From: Gemmatimonadota bacterium
GTDB lineage: Bacteria > Gemmatimonadota > Gemmatimonadetes > Gemmatimonadales > GWC2-71-9
Direction: 5' to 3'
NCBI GenBank assembly: GCA_003222195.1
Contig: QHVB01000034.1
Location: 12,974 to 76,973, forward strand
Length of the DNA: 64,000 bases
In this document: in pieces, positions 30,618 to 41,838 of the stretch
How positions within the stretch are numbered: position 1 is the first letter of the stretch
Layout: the number at the start of each line of letters is the position of its first letter
Made by a program: the position numbers and the translations under genes
The notes under the pieces: generated by a model
What the model saw: only the letters and a program-made list of their open reading frames with translations
Database searches by the model: none
What the model was told of the DNA's origin: nothing

Positions 30618-30701
30618 GCCGAAGTGGTGGAACTGGTAGACGCGCTGGCTTCAGGAGCCAGTGGGCGCAAGCCCGTGGGGGTTCGAGTCCCCCCTTCGGC
30701 A
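30618..30701 (+). tRNA. tRNA-Leu (anticodon CAG), type II with long variable arm, no encoded CCA
   Basis: Acceptor GCCGAAG/CTTCGGC. Anticodon stem CTGGC/GCCAG with loop TTCAGGA. Variable arm TGGGCGCAAGCCCGT. T-arm GGGGG-TTCGAGT-CCCCC. Confidence 0.93.
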
Positions 30702-30702
30702 C

Positions 30703-31845
30703 TCAGTACCGCGGTATCTCCGGATCAACTTCCCGCGCCCAAGCATCGATTCCGCCCGCGAGGCTGCGTACGTTGGCGAATCCCGCGCCCACGAGAATCT
30801 CGCGCGCTTTCAGCGACCGCTGACCGTGATGACAGTGCGTCACGATCTCCGCATGTGACGGGATTTCCCCCAAGCGGCTCGGCAGCTCTCGCAGTGGAAT
30901 CAGCCGGGCGCCTTCGATGCTCGCAATCTCCGCTTCGCGCGGTTCACGAACATCGACCAGCAGCAAATTGGGTTTGTGACTGCGCTCGCGTTGCAAGTCG
31001 CGGGGCGTGATTTCGACCCCTTCCCCGTTCCCCCGACTCGCCTCCACGACTCCGCAGAACGCTTCGTAGTCGATCAGCCGTGTGACGGTCGGGTGCTCAC
31101 CGCACACGGGACACCCGGGATCCTTTTCGAGCGCCAGCTCGCGGAATTGCAGGCGCCGGCCGTCGAACAGCAACAGACGACCGATCAGTGGCTGACCAAA
31201 GCCGACGATCAGCTTGATCGCTTCCAGCGCTTGCAGCGAGCCGATGATGCCCGGCAGGACGCCGAGCACGCCCCCTTCGGCGCACGACGGCACGAGATCG
31301 GGCGGCGGCGGCTCGGCATACAAGCAGCGATAGCAGGGCCCCTGTTTCGCGAAGAACACGGAGACCTGGCCGTCGAACCGAAAGACCGAGCCGTAGATGT
31401 TCGGCTTGCCCAACAACACACAGGCATCGTTGACGAGATAGCGGGTGGGAAAATTGTCGGAGCCGTCGACCACGATGTCGAATTTGCTCAGGATCTCGAG
31501 CGCGTTGGCTGACGTCAACCGCTGACCGAACGCTTCAACCTGGACGTGCGGATTGATGTCGCGCAGTCGCGCCCGAGCCGAGTCCGTCTTCGCCCTGCCG
31601 ATGTCCGACGTCCCGTGGAGGATCTGCCGCTGCAGGTTGCTGCGATCGACCAGATCGAAGTCGACGATGCCGATCGTGCCCACGCCGGCCGCGGCGAGAT
31701 AGAGCGCCGCCGGCGATCCCAAACCGCCCGCGCCAACCAGCAAGACGCGCGCGTCGCGAAGCTGCGATTGACCGTGGAGACCGACATCGGGAAGCGTGAG
31801 GTGCCGCGAGTACCGCAGCAGCTCCTCATGCGACAGCGTCGTCAA
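30703..31845 (-). CDS. moeB: MoeB/ThiF-type adenylyltransferase fused to C-terminal rhodanese domain (MoeZ-type)
   Basis: RYSRHLTLPDVGLHGQ, LLVGAGGLGSP, two CxxC pairs, C-terminal rhodanese with active-site loop CHHGQRS. Confidence 0.88.
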   Translation of the reverse strand: MTTLSHEELLRYSRHLTLPDVGLHGQSQLRDARVLLVGAGGLGSPAALYLAAAGVGTIGIVDFDLVDRSNLQRQILHGTSDIGRAKTDSARARLRDINPHVQVEAFGQRLTSANALEILSKFDIVVDGSDNFPTRYLVNDACVLLGKPNIYGSVFRFDGQVSVFFAKQGPCYRCLYAEPPPPDLVPSCAEGGVLGVLPGIIGSLQALEAIKLIVGFGQPLIGRLLLFDGRRLQFRELALEKDPGCPVCGEHPTVTRLIDYEAFCGVVEASRGNGEGVEITPRDLQRERSHKPNLLLVDVREPREAEIASIEGARLIPLRELPSRLGEIPSHAEIVTHCHHGQRSLKAREILVGAGFANVRSLAGGIDAWAREVDPEIPRY

Positions 31846-32294
31846 TTGCCCGACGCCACCCCGGCGATCTGGTACACTTGGGGCTCGGCAAGCTGCAGAT
31901 CGGCGAGCGTGACGCTCGCGAGCACTTCGTTGATACGCCGCTCGAGCAGGCGCCAGACGGGACGAATACTGCAGGCGGTCGCCGGATCGCAGCGCTCATC
32001 GTCCACGCGGTGGAGATCGCAATTCACTTCGAACGTCACGTGCTCTGACGCTTCAATGACGTCCTTCACGCTCACGGCCTGGGCCTCACGCGCGAGGAGG
32101 TAGCCGCCGCGCGCCCCGCGCACCGACTCGACCAAACCGGCACGCCGCAGGCGCAGCAGGATCTGCTCGACGTAATCGTGGGGGAGGCGTTCTTGCTCCG
32201 ACAATTCGCGGGCGGCGACGGGGCCCTTCCCCGCGCGCCGGGCCAGATGAATCGAGACGATTAACCCGTATTCCGCCCAGGTCGTAACGCGCAT
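31842..32294 (-). CDS. Rrf2-family transcriptional regulator
   Basis: MRVTTWAEYGLIVSIHLAR...LRRAGLVESVRGARGGYLLA winged-helix signature. Confidence 0.85.
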   Translation of the reverse strand: MRVTTWAEYGLIVSIHLARRAGKGPVAARELSEQERLPHDYVEQILLRLRRAGLVESVRGARGGYLLAREAQAVSVKDVIEASEHVTFEVNCDLHRVDDERCDPATACSIRPVWRLLERRINEVLASVTLADLQLAEPQVYQIAGVASGN

Positions 32295-36377: not shown

Positions 36378-36945
36378 GTCCGCTGTACACGATGGTGTCG
36401 TCCGAAAGAGGGAGCAACTCGCGCTCGATACTCGCGATCAATGTCTCGAAATCGGCGCCCGGCAGGTCGGTTCTGCCGATCGACCCGGCGAACAACACGT
36501 CCCCGCTCAACACCACGCCCGGTCCCACCAGGCACACGCTGCCGGGCGAGTGACCGGGCGCATGCCGCGCTTCGAAATCCAGACCGCCCACCGAGAGCCG
36601 CGCTCCGGGCGCGATCTCGTGGTCGGGCGGCGGAAGTGATCCGGGAGGCGCAAGCCCAAACCAGGCCGCCTGTTCGGGCACGGCGTCATACAGCGGGCGG
36701 TCAGCGGGATGCAGCCACACTGGCGCGCCAGTTTCGGCGGCGATCCTGGGAACGCCGAGGACATGGTCGATGTGCGCGTGCGTGAGCCAGATCGCGACGG
36801 GCTTCGTGCCCGTTTCCTTCACTGTGTGAAGAATCAGCCCGGCTTCCTCGCCCGGATCGACGATGGCACACTCCCCCGCGTGCGCGTCCACGACGAGGTA
36901 GCAGTTCTCGGCGAACATGCCGTTGGGGATCTGGACGATCTTCAT
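36304..36945 (-). CDS. MBL-fold hydrolase (hydroxyacylglutathione hydrolase-like)
   Basis: THAHIDH metal motif and HAPGHSPG. 213 aa. Confidence 0.85.
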   Translation of the reverse strand: MKIVQIPNGMFAENCYLVVDAHAGECAIVDPGEEAGLILHTVKETGTKPVAIWLTHAHIDHVLGVPRIAAETGAPVWLHPADRPLYDAVPEQAAWFGLAPPGSLPPPDHEIAPGARLSVGGLDFEARHAPGHSPGSVCLVGPGVVLSGDVLFAGSIGRTDLPGADFETLIASIERELLPLSDDTIVYSGHGPETTIGRERRTNPFLTGVDRIV

Positions 36946-37907
36946 TTCTTGGCCTTCCCGTCGCCTTCCCGGAGTCCCTTGAGAAACTTCTCGACTGCTA
37001 TCGCAGCGGTCGTCGCGTCGCCGACCGCCGTGGTGATTTGCCGCGTGACCTGACTGCGCACATCCCCCGCGGCGAAGAGACCCGCCATCGAGGTCATCAT
37101 CCGGTTGTCGGTGATCAGATAGCCGCCGGCATCGTGATCGACGTGCCCGTCCACAAGCTGCGTGTTCGGCTTGAACCCCGCGAAGATGAACACCCCCCCG
37201 ACATCGAGGTTGGAACGCATGCCGGTCGAGTTGTCCTCGAGTACGGCGTGGGTGACGCCTGTGTCGTTGCCGACGATTTCCGGGACGACGGTGTTGCGGA
37301 TGACTTCGATCTTGGGATTGGAGAACGCGCGCTCCTGCAGCAGCTGCGAGGCGCGGAATTCGTCGCGCCGATGCACGAGATGCACCTTGCTGGCGTAGCG
37401 CGTGAGGTAGTCGGCCTCCTCGACGGCGGCGTCGCCCCCGCCCACCACGGCGAGGCGCTCGCCCCTGAAGAACGCGCCGTCGCAGACCGCGCAGTACGAG
37501 ACGCCCTTCCCGGCATATTCTTTCTCGCCCGGGATGCCGAGCTTCACCGGCGTGCCGCCTGCAGTGAGAATAACCGCCTGACTCCGGTAGGAATCGCCGC
37601 GGGCCGTCTCGACGTCAAACCAGCCGTCCGCGTCGCGGTGGATGCGCTCGACCATATCGGTCACGATCTCGGCGCCGAACTGCTTGGCGTGCTCCGTCAT
37701 CTTCTGCGCCAGCTCCCACCCCTTGACGCTCTCGAACCCGATGTAGTCTTCGATCAGATCGGTGTTGAGGAGCTCGCCGCCAGGGGCGCCGCGCTCGATC
37801 GTCACCGCCTTGAGCAAGCCCCGGCCCGCATACAGCGCGGCGCACAGCCCGGCGGGACCAGCCCCGACGATGACGACATCGTAGATGAGCGCGACACGTT
37901 TAGTCAT
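36942..37907 (-). CDS. trxB: Thioredoxin-disulfide reductase
   Basis: YDVVIVGAGPAGL, redox-active CAVCDG, VVGGGDAAVEEA. ATG at 37907 avoids overlap with the upstream gene. Confidence 0.92.
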   Translation of the reverse strand: MTKRVALIYDVVIVGAGPAGLCAALYAGRGLLKAVTIERGAPGGELLNTDLIEDYIGFESVKGWELAQKMTEHAKQFGAEIVTDMVERIHRDADGWFDVETARGDSYRSQAVILTAGGTPVKLGIPGEKEYAGKGVSYCAVCDGAFFRGERLAVVGGGDAAVEEADYLTRYASKVHLVHRRDEFRASQLLQERAFSNPKIEVIRNTVVPEIVGNDTGVTHAVLEDNSTGMRSNLDVGGVFIFAGFKPNTQLVDGHVDHDAGGYLITDNRMMTSMAGLFAAGDVRSQVTRQITTAVGDATTAAIAVEKFLKGLREGDGKAKK

Positions 37908-39006
37908 GTGCTCGGAATTCCAGTCGCGGGGGATCACCCTCCCCCGCCAGGGCGCGCGCCAACTGGGCGCGAAATTCTACGGTTTCGAATTCGATCTCGG
38001 GTCGCTGCGGACCGGCCAGCTTCTCGAGCGCTGCCGCTCCAACGACCACCGTCCCGTGACGGTTCCCGCGGGCCCGGTGCAGCAGCGCGGCCGCGGCTTG
38101 AATGAAGCCCTGCCAGACCTGCGCCTCTTCCTTCTTAATAATAGAACGCCAGACTGTTTCCAACGCTTCGTGCGCTAACCAGAACTCCCTGCGATTGAAT
38201 AGGTCCTGAGCATGGACCAGGTAGCGCTGGCGATCCTCGGGTGTCACGTGCGTCGTGCGTCGTGCGTCGTGCGTCGTGCGTGGACCGACCCGCAAGAGGT
38301 TGAGCGCCCCATGACAGCTGGAGATCGTCCCAACGAGCACGTCGGCCTCGCCGGAAGCGCCGGCCTCCTCGACCAGCCGGTCCCCTTCGCGAACCGACTC
38401 CGCCGAGAACATCCCCACGCCGAAGACTTGATGCTTGCACACAAACAGCGCCGGCCCGCGCACTTGCCGACCGCCGGCCCGCAGCCGTGCTGCAAGCTCG
38501 CGGACCGTATCCCCCATCTCCCACGTGCGCTGGGCGCCGATCGCCGGGCAAAGCGCCGGCTCGATGCAATGGGTCGGGCAGACCCAGTCCGCCCACGAGA
38601 CGTAGCGCGTCGCATCCGGGCCGCCACCGGCGCGATCATACGGCGTCGGAACGTCGCCGGGTACCGGCTCGACCGATACGGATCGGGTGGGCCAGCGTTC
38701 CAGCGCCCGGCGAAGCACCCACTCGAACATGAGATGCGGCATGTGGGGCGAGGGGACGATCTGGTCGTCGGTCGGACTGTCGGACGGTCGGACGGTGAGA
38801 AACCGATCGAAGAATGCGGTCCACTCCGATACAACGAATGCGCGATCGGGACTCTCTCCGAGCTCACGACGCGCCCGGCACTCTGGATTCCGATCCACCA
38901 CTATGACCTTGCGATAGTCGGTCTTGCCGCGCGCTTTGGCTTTCGCGAGCTGAGACGCGTAGAACGTCCCATAGCACCCGCCACCGACGACGACGACGTC
39001 CCTCAG
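37900..39006 (-). CDS. Conserved hypothetical: N-terminal dinucleotide-binding domain + Cys cluster + C-terminal DUF309 domain
   Basis: The frame stays open upstream of ORF-track start 38901 and encodes (M)RDVVVVGGGCYGTFYASQLAKAKARGKTDYRKVIVVD. The only start-like codon is CTG at 39004-39006, overlapping the SDR stop (CTGA). The C-terminus LFNRREFWLAHEALE...WQGFIQAAAALLH is DUF309-like. Confidence 0.6.
   Translation of the reverse strand: MRDVVVVGGGCYGTFYASQLAKAKARGKTDYRKVIVVDRNPECRARRELGESPDRAFVVSEWTAFFDRFLTVRPSDSPTDDQIVPSPHMPHLMFEWVLRRALERWPTRSVSVEPVPGDVPTPYDRAGGGPDATRYVSWADWVCPTHCIEPALCPAIGAQRTWEMGDTVRELAARLRAGGRQVRGPALFVCKHQVFGVGMFSAESVREGDRLVEEAGASGEADVLVGTISSCHGALNLLRVGPRTTHDARRTTHVTPEDRQRYLVHAQDLFNRREFWLAHEALETVWRSIIKKEEAQVWQGFIQAAAALLHRARGNRHGTVVVGAAALEKLAGPQRPEIEFETVEFRAQLARALAGEGDPPRLEFRAHD
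38248..38282. repeat. Heptanucleotide tandem repeat (GTGCGTC)x4 + GTGCGTG inside the CDS
   Basis: Read directly at 38248-38282. Encodes TTHDARRTTH on the minus strand, between the N-terminal domain and DUF309. Confidence 0.9.
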
Positions 39007-39734
39007 CGGAGGAGTCTCCCTCCATCGACGACGAGGATCGTGCCGGTCGCGTAATCCGTTCCCGCCAGGAGAAATCGCAACGCGGCCACGACGTCCGCGG
39101 GAGAGCCGATGCGCTCGAGCGGGGTCGTTTCGCGAATGTGCTCCCGCGACTGGGTATCCCAGTCGTCGGGCAGGAGCACAGCCCCGGGCGCGATCGCATT
39201 GACGGCAATATCGGGCGCCAGGGCGCGCGCGAGCGCCTTGGTCAGCATCACGACCCCCGCCTTACTGACGCTGTGCGGGATGTACGTCGGCCACGGCTCC
39301 AGACCCGCGAGATCCGCGAGGTTGACGATCTTGCCCTTGGTGCGGCGCAGATGCGGGATGGCGCCCTGGGAGACGAAAAAGATGGCGCGCAGGTTGAGAT
39401 CGAGCGTCGCGTCCCAGCTCTCGGGCGTCACCGTTTCCACCGATTGGCGTACCATGATGGCCGCCGAGTTGACCACGATGTCGAGGCGCTGCAACGCGCG
39501 GGCGGCTTGATCGGCCAGGCCCCGCGCGGCGCTGGGGTCACGCAGGTCGGCCGACACCAGCGCGGCCCGGCGACCGGCCTTCCGCACCGCCAGCGCCGTC
39601 TCTTCGGCACCCTTCGCGGAACCATGATAATGCACGGCGACGTCGCAGCCGGACTCCGCGAGTCCGATGGCGATCGCCTGACCGATCCGCCGCCCTGCCC
39701 CAGTAACGAGTGCCGCCGCGCCTTCGAGCCGCAC
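39003..39734 (-). CDS. Short-chain dehydrogenase/reductase
   Basis: ALVTGAGRRIGQAIA, NSAA, YSVSKAG catalytic motif. GTG start shares 1 nt with the upstream TAG. Confidence 0.85.
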   Translation of the reverse strand: MRLEGAAALVTGAGRRIGQAIAIGLAESGCDVAVHYHGSAKGAEETALAVRKAGRRAALVSADLRDPSAARGLADQAARALQRLDIVVNSAAIMVRQSVETVTPESWDATLDLNLRAIFFVSQGAIPHLRRTKGKIVNLADLAGLEPWPTYIPHSVSKAGVVMLTKALARALAPDIAVNAIAPGAVLLPDDWDTQSREHIRETTPLERIGSPADVVAALRFLLAGTDYATGTILVVDGGRLLR

Positions 39735-40456
39735 TAGTACGCTTTTCCGGTAATGGGAACGATCTGGCCGGTGATCGCGCTGGCTTCGTCACTCGCCAGA
39801 AACAGAACCGTGTTCACGACTTCTTCCAACTCGACGAGTGGTTGCGTATCGCCCATCTGTGCCACGTTGTCGGCGGTGCGGACGGTCGCTGGCGCCACCG
39901 CGTTCACGCGGATGTTGGCATCGCGGTATTCGCGCGCCAGCTCGCGGGTGAGTCCGGCGACGGCTGACTTTGCCGCGCTGTACGCGGACATGTACATGAG
40001 CGACCGCACCACGGCGATCGATGCGAAGTTGACGATCGCGCCGCCCCCGCGCGTGAGCAGGAGGGGGACGGCGGCCTGACACATGTAGAAGGCGGTCTTG
40101 AAGTTGACGGACAGCTCACGATCGAGGATCTCGGGCTTGACCTCCGTGAACGGACCATAGCTGAAAAAGCCGCCCGCGACGTTCACCACGACGTCGAGGC
40201 CGCCAAACTGCGCCTGCGCCATGGCGGTCGCGGCGCGCGCGGCCTCGGGTTGCGTCAGGTCGCCGGCCGAGGCTTTCGCGGCGATCCCTTCCGCCCCGAA
40301 CTCCTTGACCCGATCCGCGAGCCCGACGGCGTTGACGTCGGCGAGCAGCAGCTTCCCGCCGGCGCGGCCGATACCGCGGGCCACCGCATGACCGATTTGT
40401 CCGACCCGGCCCACGCCGGTGACGAGGACAACCTTGCCGTGCAAATCAGGCGGCAC
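39734..40456 (-). CDS. Short-chain dehydrogenase/reductase
   Basis: VVLVTGVGRVGQIGHAVA, NVAG, YSAAKSA catalytic motif. Confidence 0.85.
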   Translation of the reverse strand: MPPDLHGKVVLVTGVGRVGQIGHAVARGIGRAGGKLLLADVNAVGLADRVKEFGAEGIAAKASAGDLTQPEAARAATAMAQAQFGGLDVVVNVAGGFFSYGPFTEVKPEILDRELSVNFKTAFYMCQAAVPLLLTRGGGAIVNFASIAVVRSLMYMSAYSAAKSAVAGLTRELAREYRDANIRVNAVAPATVRTADNVAQMGDTQPLVELEEVVNTVLFLASDEASAITGQIVPITGKAY

Positions 40457-40883
40457 GGACGATGTCGTCTACGGGAGGGGCGCCGCGCTGCGCAAAGCGC
40501 ACGGTGCCGTCGCGGCCGATCACATACACCGTGCGCTGAATCCGCTGGCCATCTTCCCTCAGCGCGTTGTACGCCCCGGCGATCGTGCGCTCGGGATCCG
40601 AGAGCAGCGGGAAGTTGAACTGAAACTTGTCGACGTAGCCGCGATGACTCTCCACGCTCGCGGGATTCACGCCCAGCGGCTGCATTTTGGCTGACTCGAA
40701 TTTGGCTATCTCATCGCGCACGGCGGAGAGTTGGCGGTTTCAGCCGGGCGTGTTGTTGCCCGGGTAGAAAACCAGCGCCACCGGTCCGTTCTTCAAGAGA
40801 TCGGCCAGGGCGTAGGTCCGGCCGTCCGAGGCCGGAGCCTTGAACGCGGGTGCCTTACTACCGATCGGAAGCGGCTCGCTCAT
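40446..40883 (-). CDS. Bcp/PrxQ-type peroxiredoxin with in-frame TGA (candidate selenocysteine) at the peroxidatic position
   Basis: ORFs 40740..41144 (from ATG 40883) and 40446..40721 share one frame. The joined product ...VALVFYPGNNTPG-U-NRQLSAVRDEIAKFESAKMQPLGVNPASVESHRGYVDKFQFNFPLLSDPERTIAGAYNAL... is colinear with Bcp. TGA at 40740-40742 replaces the Cys of TPGC. Confidence 0.7.
40709..40729 (-). promoter_or_regulatory. Candidate bacterial SECIS hairpin
   Basis: mRNA +14 to +34 from the U of UGA is UCUC-CGC-CGUGC-GCG-AU-GAGA. That gives a 4-bp lower stem, a 3-bp upper stem, a 3'-side AU bulge, and apical loop CGUGC with G22/U23. As I recall, the E. coli fdhF SECIS has G23/U24. Folded by hand only. 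Confidence 0.4.
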
Positions 40884-41838
40884 CGCGTTTCCTCGTGGTG
40901 AGCTCGAGACGGTGCTCGAGCTGTTCCAGCCAGGCGTCCGGGACGCGCATGCCGCCGAGCGGCGCATGCGACTCCCCGTACTCGCTCTCCCCGTGCCAAT
41001 CGGACCCGCCCGTGATGCCGAGTCCGAGCCGCTCGGCGATGCGCGTGAGCCTCTGCTCGACGGCGGGGGCGTGACTGGGATGGCGGACCTCGACGCAGTC
41101 GAGTCCCTGGTCCTGAAAGATGCGGATCTGCGCCTCCGTCCCACGATCGCCCAGATGCGCCGCGGCGGTGAGTCCGCCCACGTGGTGCACCAGATCCGTC
41201 ACGTCGGCGAGCTTGGGGAGGGGCTTCTCGACGTAAGCGGCACGGCCACGGCCGAGGTAGCGGCGAAATGCGTCGCCGATGTCGTCGCAGGCGCCGCAGT
41301 CGACCAGCGCGCGCGCCACGTGAGGCCGGCCCAACGCGCCGCCGTCCCCGCCGGAAAGTTGTGCGTGCACGTCGTCGAGGTCGATGGCCACGCCGAGGCC
41401 CTGCAGCTTGGCGACGATCTGCTCGCCGCGGCGCCGGCGCGCGGCCCGCGTGTCGCGCAGGAAAGTTTGCAGCCGCTCGTTCTCATGGGGCAGGAACAGC
41501 GCCAAGACGTGCAGCTCCCCCCAGGGGGCGCGGACGCTGAACTCGCAGCCGGCAATGACGCGCACACCGAGCTTCGTCGCCTCGTGCCTCGCATCGGCAA
41601 CGCCGTCGGTCGTGTCGTGGTCAGTGAGCGCGATCGCCGCAAGATCCACCGCACGGGCACGACGCGCTACCTCCGCCGGCTCGCACTCGCCGTCGGACGC
41701 GGTCGAATGGCAATGCAGGTCAATGTGCGTCGTAATCGGCCTCGGGCGCGGTCCACGCGGGCTGCGACTGGCGCAACAGCTCGAGGAGCTCGCGGTCCGG
41801 CAGCTCCGCGAAGGCCCGGTCCGGCGAGCGGGAGCCAA
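40858..41838 (-). CDS. PHP-domain phosphoesterase (TrpH/YciV-like)
   Basis: HIDLHCHSTASDG, LTDHDT, H..H metal ligands. The only canonical start is TTG at 41838 (119-nt overlap with the upstream ORF). The true start may be non-canonical, nearer 41736. Confidence 0.75.
   Translation of the reverse strand: MAPARRTGPSRSCRTASSSSCCASRSPRGPRPRPITTHIDLHCHSTASDGECEPAEVARRARAVDLAAIALTDHDTTDGVADARHEATKLGVRVIAGCEFSVRAPWGELHVLALFLPHENERLQTFLRDTRAARRRRGEQIVAKLQGLGVAIDLDDVHAQLSGGDGGALGRPHVARALVDCGACDDIGDAFRRYLGRGRAAYVEKPLPKLADVTDLVHHVGGLTAAAHLGDRGTEAQIRIFQDQGLDCVEVRHPSHAPAVEQRLTRIAERLGLGITGGSDWHGESEYGESHAPLGGMRVPDAWLEQLEHRLELTTRKRDERAASDR

Follow-up and report, generated by a model that had tools for sequence, protein, structure and literature searches.

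We predict that a 64,000-nucleotide (nt) stretch of DNA from a Gemmatimonadota bacterium (contig QHVB01000034.1 of assembly GCA_003222195.1, order Gemmatimonadales; the whole stretch is called the window below) contains a selenoprotein gene that public gene calls divide in two. Positions 40883..40446 of the minus strand very probably form one functional peroxiredoxin (Prx) gene of the BCP/PrxQ type, in which a UGA at codon 48 is decoded as a predicted selenocysteine (Sec). The gene is intact, its UGA is conserved and has cysteine (Cys) codons as its counterpart in syntenic orthologs, the region of a hairpin just after the UGA is constrained at the RNA level, and UGA otherwise serves as a stop codon.

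An intact frame with a conserved UGA

Read from the ATG at 40883..40881 to the TGA at 40448..40446, the minus strand holds one frame of 145 sense positions, MSEPLPIGSKAPAFKAPASDGRTYALADLLKNGPVALVFYPGNNTPG*NRQLSAVRDE...VRAA*, and the TGA at 40742..40740 (codon 48) is the only in-frame stop inside it. Two listed open reading frames (ORFs), 40740..41144 and 40446..40721, have this frame in common and are separated by the TGA and the codons AAC CGC CAA CTC TCC GCC. When Cys was put in for codon 48, the protein (40446..40883, minus strand) matched the Pfam family AhpC-TSA (PF00578) from end to end, with an E value of 1.1e-32 and 113 bits against a gathering cutoff of 26 (residues 7-130 of 145, profile positions 1-123 of 124). 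The active-site motif PxxxTxxU is represented by P41, T45 and U48 in the local sequence FYPGNNTPG-U-NRQ, and the active-site Arg, R117, is unchanged across the family in both alignments. Codon 48 (40740..40742, minus strand), the predicted Sec position with Arg117 as its partner, lines up with the Cys that is peroxidatic in the solved structures of BCP. The window protein has no Cys residue at all, 145 of the 151 Sec forms compared here are likewise free of Cys, and 72 of 77 Cys forms carry the peroxidatic Cys alone. By its sequence, the peroxiredoxin is of the 1-Sec/1-Cys type, without a resolving Cys. A second Cys, six residues past the peroxidatic one (CNRQLSC, codon 54), occurs in 3 of the 77 Cys-form proteins, for example those of loci L082 and L165, and in none of the Sec forms; it might be a resolving Cys.

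These results uphold the original prediction, made from the letters of the window, on four points: that the two ORFs are one frame split by the TGA and six sense codons, that read-through yields a 145-aa (amino acid) peroxiredoxin, that the TGA sits exactly at the peroxidatic Cys (the Cys of TPGCNRQ in the relatives described next) and that the protein is of a 1-Sec type with no resolving Cys.

Relatives with Cys at this position provide a direct counterpart to the UGA. Matches in the protein database at 82-99% identity are all fragments of 87-91 aa that start right after the TGA, and the full-length database relatives, which are labelled Gemmatimonadota, measure 147-152 aa and share no more than 73% identity, carry TPGCNRQ. 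The position of codon 48 is Cys in 77 full-length homologs, and nine Cys-form loci read as DNA have TGC (eight loci) or TGT (one locus) there. The Cys-form loci share the gene string of the window, namely 2-oxoacid dehydrogenase E1/E2, two small ORFs, a PHP-domain gene, the peroxiredoxin and a short-chain dehydrogenase (SDR), and longer Cys-form contigs continue with DUF309/AF_1314_C, thioredoxin reductase and a gene for a protein of the metallo-beta-lactamase (MBL) fold. This common neighbourhood indicates that the Cys forms are orthologs and not paralogs, and the two forms make up a Cys/Sec pair with syntenic orthologs. The syntenic Cys orthologs in Gemmatimonadota are annotated as "peroxiredoxin Q/BCP". 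In a neighbor-joining tree with bootstrap, built from loci L001-L170 and proteins P0001-P0027, the Sec forms interleave with Cys forms of 152 aa that resemble P0001, and other Cys forms, of 148 aa, lie outside. The interleaving hints at repeated switching between Sec and Cys, and the bootstrap support of 0-13% permits no conclusion on the direction or number of switches.

Conservation of the UGA was assessed in two sets of homologous loci. The genome set drew on one genome per species (GTDB representatives), from which the best 80 loci were taken, all of them in metagenome-assembled genomes of Gemmatimonadales; the metagenome set consisted of the best 80 loci found by searching soil metagenomes of the Joint Genome Institute (JGI) with Cys forms. 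Every one of the 80 genome loci (69-94% amino-acid identity) has TGA at codon 48, as do 78 of the 80 metagenome loci, the other two being Cys forms. Over both sets, 158 of the 160 homologous loci have the TGA, on contigs that were assembled independently in many projects. The loci give 151 unique DNAs, which are free of further stops and frameshifts; in 148 of them an ATG stands at the position of the start codon described above. Judged from these alignments, the TGA at codon 48 is a conserved feature of the gene and not a lesion.

A single in-frame TGA, seen in isolation, could be a TGC misread in sequencing or assembly, or a sign that UGA is a sense codon throughout the genome (code 4 or code 25); beyond that one TGA, nothing speaks for either explanation. 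We find this pair of explanations barely credible. The error is refuted by the recurrence of the same TGA in 158 contigs assembled independently of one another in many projects, and reassignment is refuted by the use of TGA as terminator in 9 of 15 neighbouring genes, the peroxiredoxin gene itself among them. Because TGA is the usual local stop, recoding at codon 48 is site-specific and UGA is not reassigned genome-wide. A scan of the window for more in-frame TGAs with high G+C content at third codon positions on both sides returned antisense artefacts and one gene junction only.

Selection acts on both sides of the UGA. The ratio of nonsynonymous to synonymous change (dN/dS), calculated by the Nei-Gojobori method from 1500 random pairs, is 0.171 in codons 1-47 and 0.168 in codons 60-139, with dS at about 1.0. 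The equally low values indicate that both parts are translated in this frame and kept by selection. They bear on the view that the locus is a pseudogene, or else two small genes, one for an N-terminal peptide of 47 aa and one for a C-terminal fragment of 91 aa that starts at the GTG at 40721. Public gene calls of 47 aa plus 79 or 91 aa are in line with that view, as is the presence of a GTG six codons past the TGA. Against it, 151 unique sequences agree in the TGA, the frame and the spacing of six codons despite a dS of about 1, secondary stops and frameshifts are absent, and dN/dS is 0.17 in both parts. Moreover, neither fragment is a complete thioredoxin fold, the C-terminal piece lacks the catalytic residue, and the GTG belongs to the loop of the hairpin described below. 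A pseudogene or a pair of small genes is therefore very improbable, being effectively refuted by the conservation of the TGA, the intact frames and the dN/dS values. The original prediction had likewise argued that the TGA is no random nonsense mutation, a position that the 158 of 160 loci with TGA and the purifying selection on both halves support. It had also suggested looking at the orthologs for the codon used and for signs of decay; the codon proved to be TGC or TGT in the nine syntenic Cys forms and TGA in the 158 loci, and the 151 unique DNAs are free of decay.

RNA-level constraint and the predicted hairpin

The sequence that follows the UGA is conserved at synonymous sites. The proportion of synonymous differences (pS) is 0.09 in codons 49-59, compared to 0.56 in both flanks; synonymous change collapses at nt +4..+35 past the UGA and is saturated over the rest of the gene. 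Seven of ten codons in this region (49, 52, 53, 54, 55, 56 and 58) are each fixed throughout about 150 sequences, whereas none of the 57 degenerate codons elsewhere in the gene that have at least 97% amino-acid conservation is invariant (hypergeometric p of about 1.4e-7). Since the codons are compared within the same sequences, shared ancestry cancels. Protein-level conservation can be set beside this result: the motif FYPGNNTPG (codons 38-47), which is equally conserved (pN, the nonsynonymous counterpart, is 0.014), retains a pS of 0.49. In the nine Cys forms, alternative codons are found at 11 of 42 of the positions that are frozen in the Sec forms (CTG/CTT, TCG, GTA/GTT, CGG/CGT and GAA). 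Selection at the RNA level thus acts over the hairpin region in the Sec forms and not in the Cys forms. The frozen synonymous zone, nt +1..+35 (40708..40742, minus strand), would comprise a Sec insertion sequence (SECIS) and its spacer.

Two further observations concern this zone. The idea that the Cys forms retain a relic SECIS was considered and rejected, because the preferred GC-rich codons for LSAVRD yield nearly the same nucleotides anyway. Gln51 (40731-40733, minus strand; nt 10-12 past the UGA) is encoded by CAA in 147 of 151 Sec forms and by CAG in nine of nine Cys forms. Elsewhere in the gene Gln is more often encoded by CAG, and the selected A12 sits in the spacer, outside both of the pairing registers given below.

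The predicted SECIS hairpin spans nt 13-34 (40709..40730, minus strand), where the U of the UGA is nt 1. The stem preferred by RNAfold pairs C13-G33, U14-A32 and C15-G31, continues through a 2x2 internal loop (U16 C17 / A29 U30) into an upper stem of C18-G28, G19-C27 and C20-G26, and closes on the apical loop C21-G22-U23-G24-C25 (40718..40722, minus strand; G22 = 40721, U23 = 40720). The calculated energy is -6.5 kcal/mol in this shifted register (CUC/GAG) and -5.6 kcal/mol in the UCUC/GAGA register. The spacer from UGA to stem is 9-10 nt long and the distance from UGA to loop is 17 nt. A hairpin folded by hand was part of the original prediction; its pairs, its CGUGC loop and its G22/U23 stand, while its spacer of 11 nt is replaced by 9-10 nt, and RNAfold favours a lower stem shifted by one. 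The loop CGUGC is identical in 151 of 151 sequences. Across nt 13-35 a single position varies, nt 30, where 98 sequences have U and 53 have C; neither register pairs it. The consensus model for bacterial SECIS elements (bSECIS), as set out in Fig. 2 of PMC13188914, has a loop of 3-9 nt with a G at loop position 1 or 2 and most often G or U next to it on the 3' side, a distance of 16-37 nt from UGA to loop, an upper stem of 4-16 bp and a minimum free energy of at most -7.5 kcal/mol. The hairpin agrees with these rules in its 5-nt loop, in G22 at loop position 2 followed by U23, and in its 17-nt spacing.

Several observations weigh against Sec decoding driven by this hairpin. In energy, the hairpin alone reaches -6.5 kcal/mol against the model limit of -7.5, and it attains -7.9 only with two flanking pairs that are not conserved. 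Its contiguous upper stem has 3 bp, followed by the internal loop and another 3-4 bp, compared to 4-16 bp in the model. Folding, proposed earlier as a check, did return the hairpin, at a stability that does not exceed that of shuffled sequence (z of about -1.3); for this reason stability is not used as evidence, and support for the hairpin rests on conservation. The stem pairs are invariant in the 151 sequences, so there is zero covariation to prove pairing. Rfam, searched at gathering thresholds and permissively over 40660-40790, gave no SECIS family, and the permissive search gave a single chance match to a small nucleolar RNA. Searches by tblastn with SelA, SelB and SelD of E. coli as probes, and by ARAGORN for tRNA-Sec, returned no selA, selB, selD or tRNA-Sec from the 64-kb window or from related loci totalling 1.74 Mb, a negative that says nothing about the rest of the genomes because the 1.74 Mb all represent one syntenic region. 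The only tRNA that ARAGORN reported in the window and in all loci was tRNA-Leu(CAG). Finally, a literature search gave no report of Sec use in Gemmatimonadota. With regard to the energy, the minimal element of E. coli fdhF folds at -4.2 kcal/mol under the same parameters, compared to -6.5 here, and the low energy of that element means that a weak hairpin is not disqualifying.

The absence of observed Sec machinery from the window and the syntenic loci also lends some weight to an explanation in which the UGA is read through and a residue other than Sec is inserted. In one such route a tRNA(Cys) resembling tRNA-Sec, together with a SelB-type factor, would bring in Cys; in another, the conserved RNA element would promote near-cognate suppression, and the residue would be Trp or Cys. 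SECIS-dependent insertion of Cys reportedly takes place in some bacteria, and the data presented here speak to read-through and RNA constraint, not to the chemistry of the inserted residue. We nevertheless consider such an insertion unlikely, because recoding falls precisely on the redox-active, catalytic Cys, the classic position of Sec. If Cys were the product, a cheaper encoding is at hand, as the TGC and TGT forms demonstrate, and an enzyme with Trp as its peroxidatic residue would be inactive, in conflict with the strong purifying selection on the gene.

For decoding as Sec, we infer an insertion that depends on binding of SelB to the hairpin and a product with peroxidase activity that has thioredoxin (Trx) as its reductant. 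In this scheme, the coding-sequence hairpin (nt 13-34) would recruit SelB with Sec-tRNA(Sec), so that the UGA is decoded and translation does not terminate. U48, activated by T45 and R117, would then reduce peroxides by way of a selenenic-acid intermediate. Regeneration would be left to an external thiol system, as a resolving Cys is missing from the protein. Trx with its reductase TrxB is a plausible candidate for this role on account of the place of trxB in the conserved gene string, a link by association only.

Gene neighbourhood and public records

The peroxiredoxin gene overlaps the genes on either side of it. Upstream, a PHP-domain gene (40858..41838, minus strand; Pfam PHP, E 2.9e-13) overlaps the peroxiredoxin start by 26 nt at its 3' end, and downstream, the GTG start of a short-chain dehydrogenase gene (39734..40456, minus strand; adh_short, E 1e-42) overlaps the peroxiredoxin stop by 11 nt (40446-40456). 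The order PHP-Prx-SDR is kept in all loci inspected. Both overlaps suggest a translationally coupled operon, in which case termination at UGA48 would also affect downstream coupling. A sequence resembling a Shine-Dalgarno element, GAGGA (40890..40894, minus strand), is located 6 nt 5' of the ATG of the peroxiredoxin gene and may function as one.

Four genes downstream is a gene for the thioredoxin-disulfide reductase TrxB (36942..37937, minus strand), assigned by TIGR01292 with 357.4 bits against a cutoff of 343.45, and its synteny is conserved in Sec-form and Cys-form loci alike. Two SDR genes and a DUF309/AF_1314_C protein are encoded between the peroxiredoxin and TrxB. The gene model at 37900-38901 (minus strand) is uncertain: the listed ORF of 333 aa has DUF309 only at its C-terminal end, and the same region in related contigs encodes either separate AF_1314_C (216 aa) and DUF309 (115 aa) proteins or one fused product of 276 aa. 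Farther along the window, at 30618-32294, the tRNA-Leu(CAG) adjoins a gene for a MoeZ/MoeB-type adenylyltransferase-rhodanese (30703..31845, minus strand), and a gene for an Rrf2-family regulator (31842..32294, minus strand) is found in the same stretch. Many related loci have this tRNA-Leu in synteny, at a distance of about 10 kb from the peroxiredoxin.

Public gene calls give a 47-aa product and a 79- or 91-aa product at the peroxiredoxin locus (47 and 79 aa in records L171, L172 and L173), and in the NCBI assembly GCA_001919895.1 the 79-aa piece alone is called at the same locus. An exact look-up of the 91-aa ORF of the window found it not on record. The exact 213-aa MBL-fold protein of the window is present on contigs in 57 blocks of the sequence collection, which indicates that the organism or its population is widely sampled in soil data.

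Our reading corrects these annotations: the 47-aa stub and the 79- or 91-aa "peroxiredoxin" would together be a single, intact selenoenzyme, misannotated in the same way in over 150 Gemmatimonadales assemblies. The original prediction had expected such a change of annotation within a family that is not itself new, and both parts of that expectation were borne out, given that the TxxU family of Prx selenoproteins is established and that public records hold fragments. The reading implies Sec decoding in these soil bacteria and bears on the selenium demand and oxidative-stress physiology of an abundant, poorly cultured lineage. The 151 Sec sequences with their syntenic Cys orthologs also provide a data set on a minimal, frozen SECIS that could be used for benchmarking predictors and for studying Sec/Cys exchange. 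No new mechanism is involved, as both the mechanism of Sec insertion and the protein family are textbook knowledge; what stands out is the near-universality of the Sec form in a major soil order, its systematic mis-annotation and the very small, frozen SECIS.

On balance we lean slightly toward the broader proposal that the Sec form is the standard across a large clade of aerobic soil Gemmatimonadales and is driven by an unusually small, invariant SECIS of about 21 nt. If this is true, a dominant soil lineage, which the selenoproteome literature searched does not mention, would have Sec decoding as one of its core traits. It would follow as well that structure-based predictors and gene callers systematically miss such genes, since a SECIS at -6.5 kcal/mol falls short of the -7.5 kcal/mol cutoff.

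Comparison with known systems

Sec-containing peroxiredoxins are an established group. A 2016 survey counted 91 Sec-peroxiredoxin genes in 78 organisms (PMC5029168), and a list of selenoprotein families includes Peroxiredoxin (Prx) as PF00578 with TxxU, under the motif PxxxTxxU (PMC13188914). PrxU of Eubacterium acidaminophilum is presented as the experimentally shown prototype (Sohling et al. 2001, as cited in PMC13188914). The window protein resembles PrxU in its AhpC/TSA fold, its PxxxTxxU motif with predicted Sec at the peroxidatic position, the UGA within the coding region and the hairpin directly downstream of it. In contrast to PrxU, to which it is not an ortholog, it is short (145 aa), BCP/PrxQ-like and devoid of Cys, and its source is Gemmatimonadales from aerobic soil, whereas PrxU comes from anaerobic Firmicutes.

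Placement within the peroxiredoxins points to the BCP type. The best matches among solved structures are 5enu, 3drn, 2cx3, 5epf and 2ywn, with E values of 2.7e-17 to 8e-16 for 5enu, 3drn and 2cx3. Entries named as BCP-type include 3drn and 2cx3 and, further down, 3hjp, 5iiz and 3gkk, and the structures of AhpE and of typical 2-Cys peroxiredoxins score below the BCP-type ones. Among solved proteins its nearest relatives belong to BCP/PrxQ and not to Prx1/AhpC, Prx6, Tpx or Prx5. The best-scoring NCBIfam models are NF006960 (thioredoxin-dependent thiol peroxidase; 65.1 bits, cutoff 140) and NF053650 (PrxQ; 54.8 bits, cutoff 260), although both scores are below cutoff. NF040737, the equivalog model for the Sec-peroxiredoxin PrxU, scores 37.9 bits against a cutoff of 270, and no selenoprotein model in NCBIfam covers the Gemmatimonadales protein. 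The protein is best described as a putative BCP/PrxQ-like 1-Sec peroxiredoxin specific to Gemmatimonadales, and not as a curated equivalog. Like the BCP/PrxQ thiol peroxidases, such as E. coli Bcp and the 1-Cys members, it has the FYPxxxTPGC context, the conserved Arg, the size and a monomer-type architecture. Unlike them, it has predicted Sec in place of the peroxidatic Cys, and its family is without a resolving Cys five residues past that position (CP+5).

At the RNA level, the closest point of comparison is the SECIS of E. coli fdhF. Its minimal form is said to be a 17-nt upper stem-loop located 11 nt past the UGA, with G23/U24 in the loop and a bulged U17. The element predicted here differs from it in sequence, in its loop of CGUGC (5 nt) as opposed to GGUC, in positions that are shifted by one nucleotide, and in having a 2x2 internal loop or a 3'-side bulge where fdhF has a single 5' bulged U. 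At the same time, both are small hairpins inside an ORF that begin about 10-11 nt past the UGA and present a G-U in the apical loop (here G22/U23), and the unpaired U16 lies 6 nt before G22, the same U-to-G distance as in fdhF.

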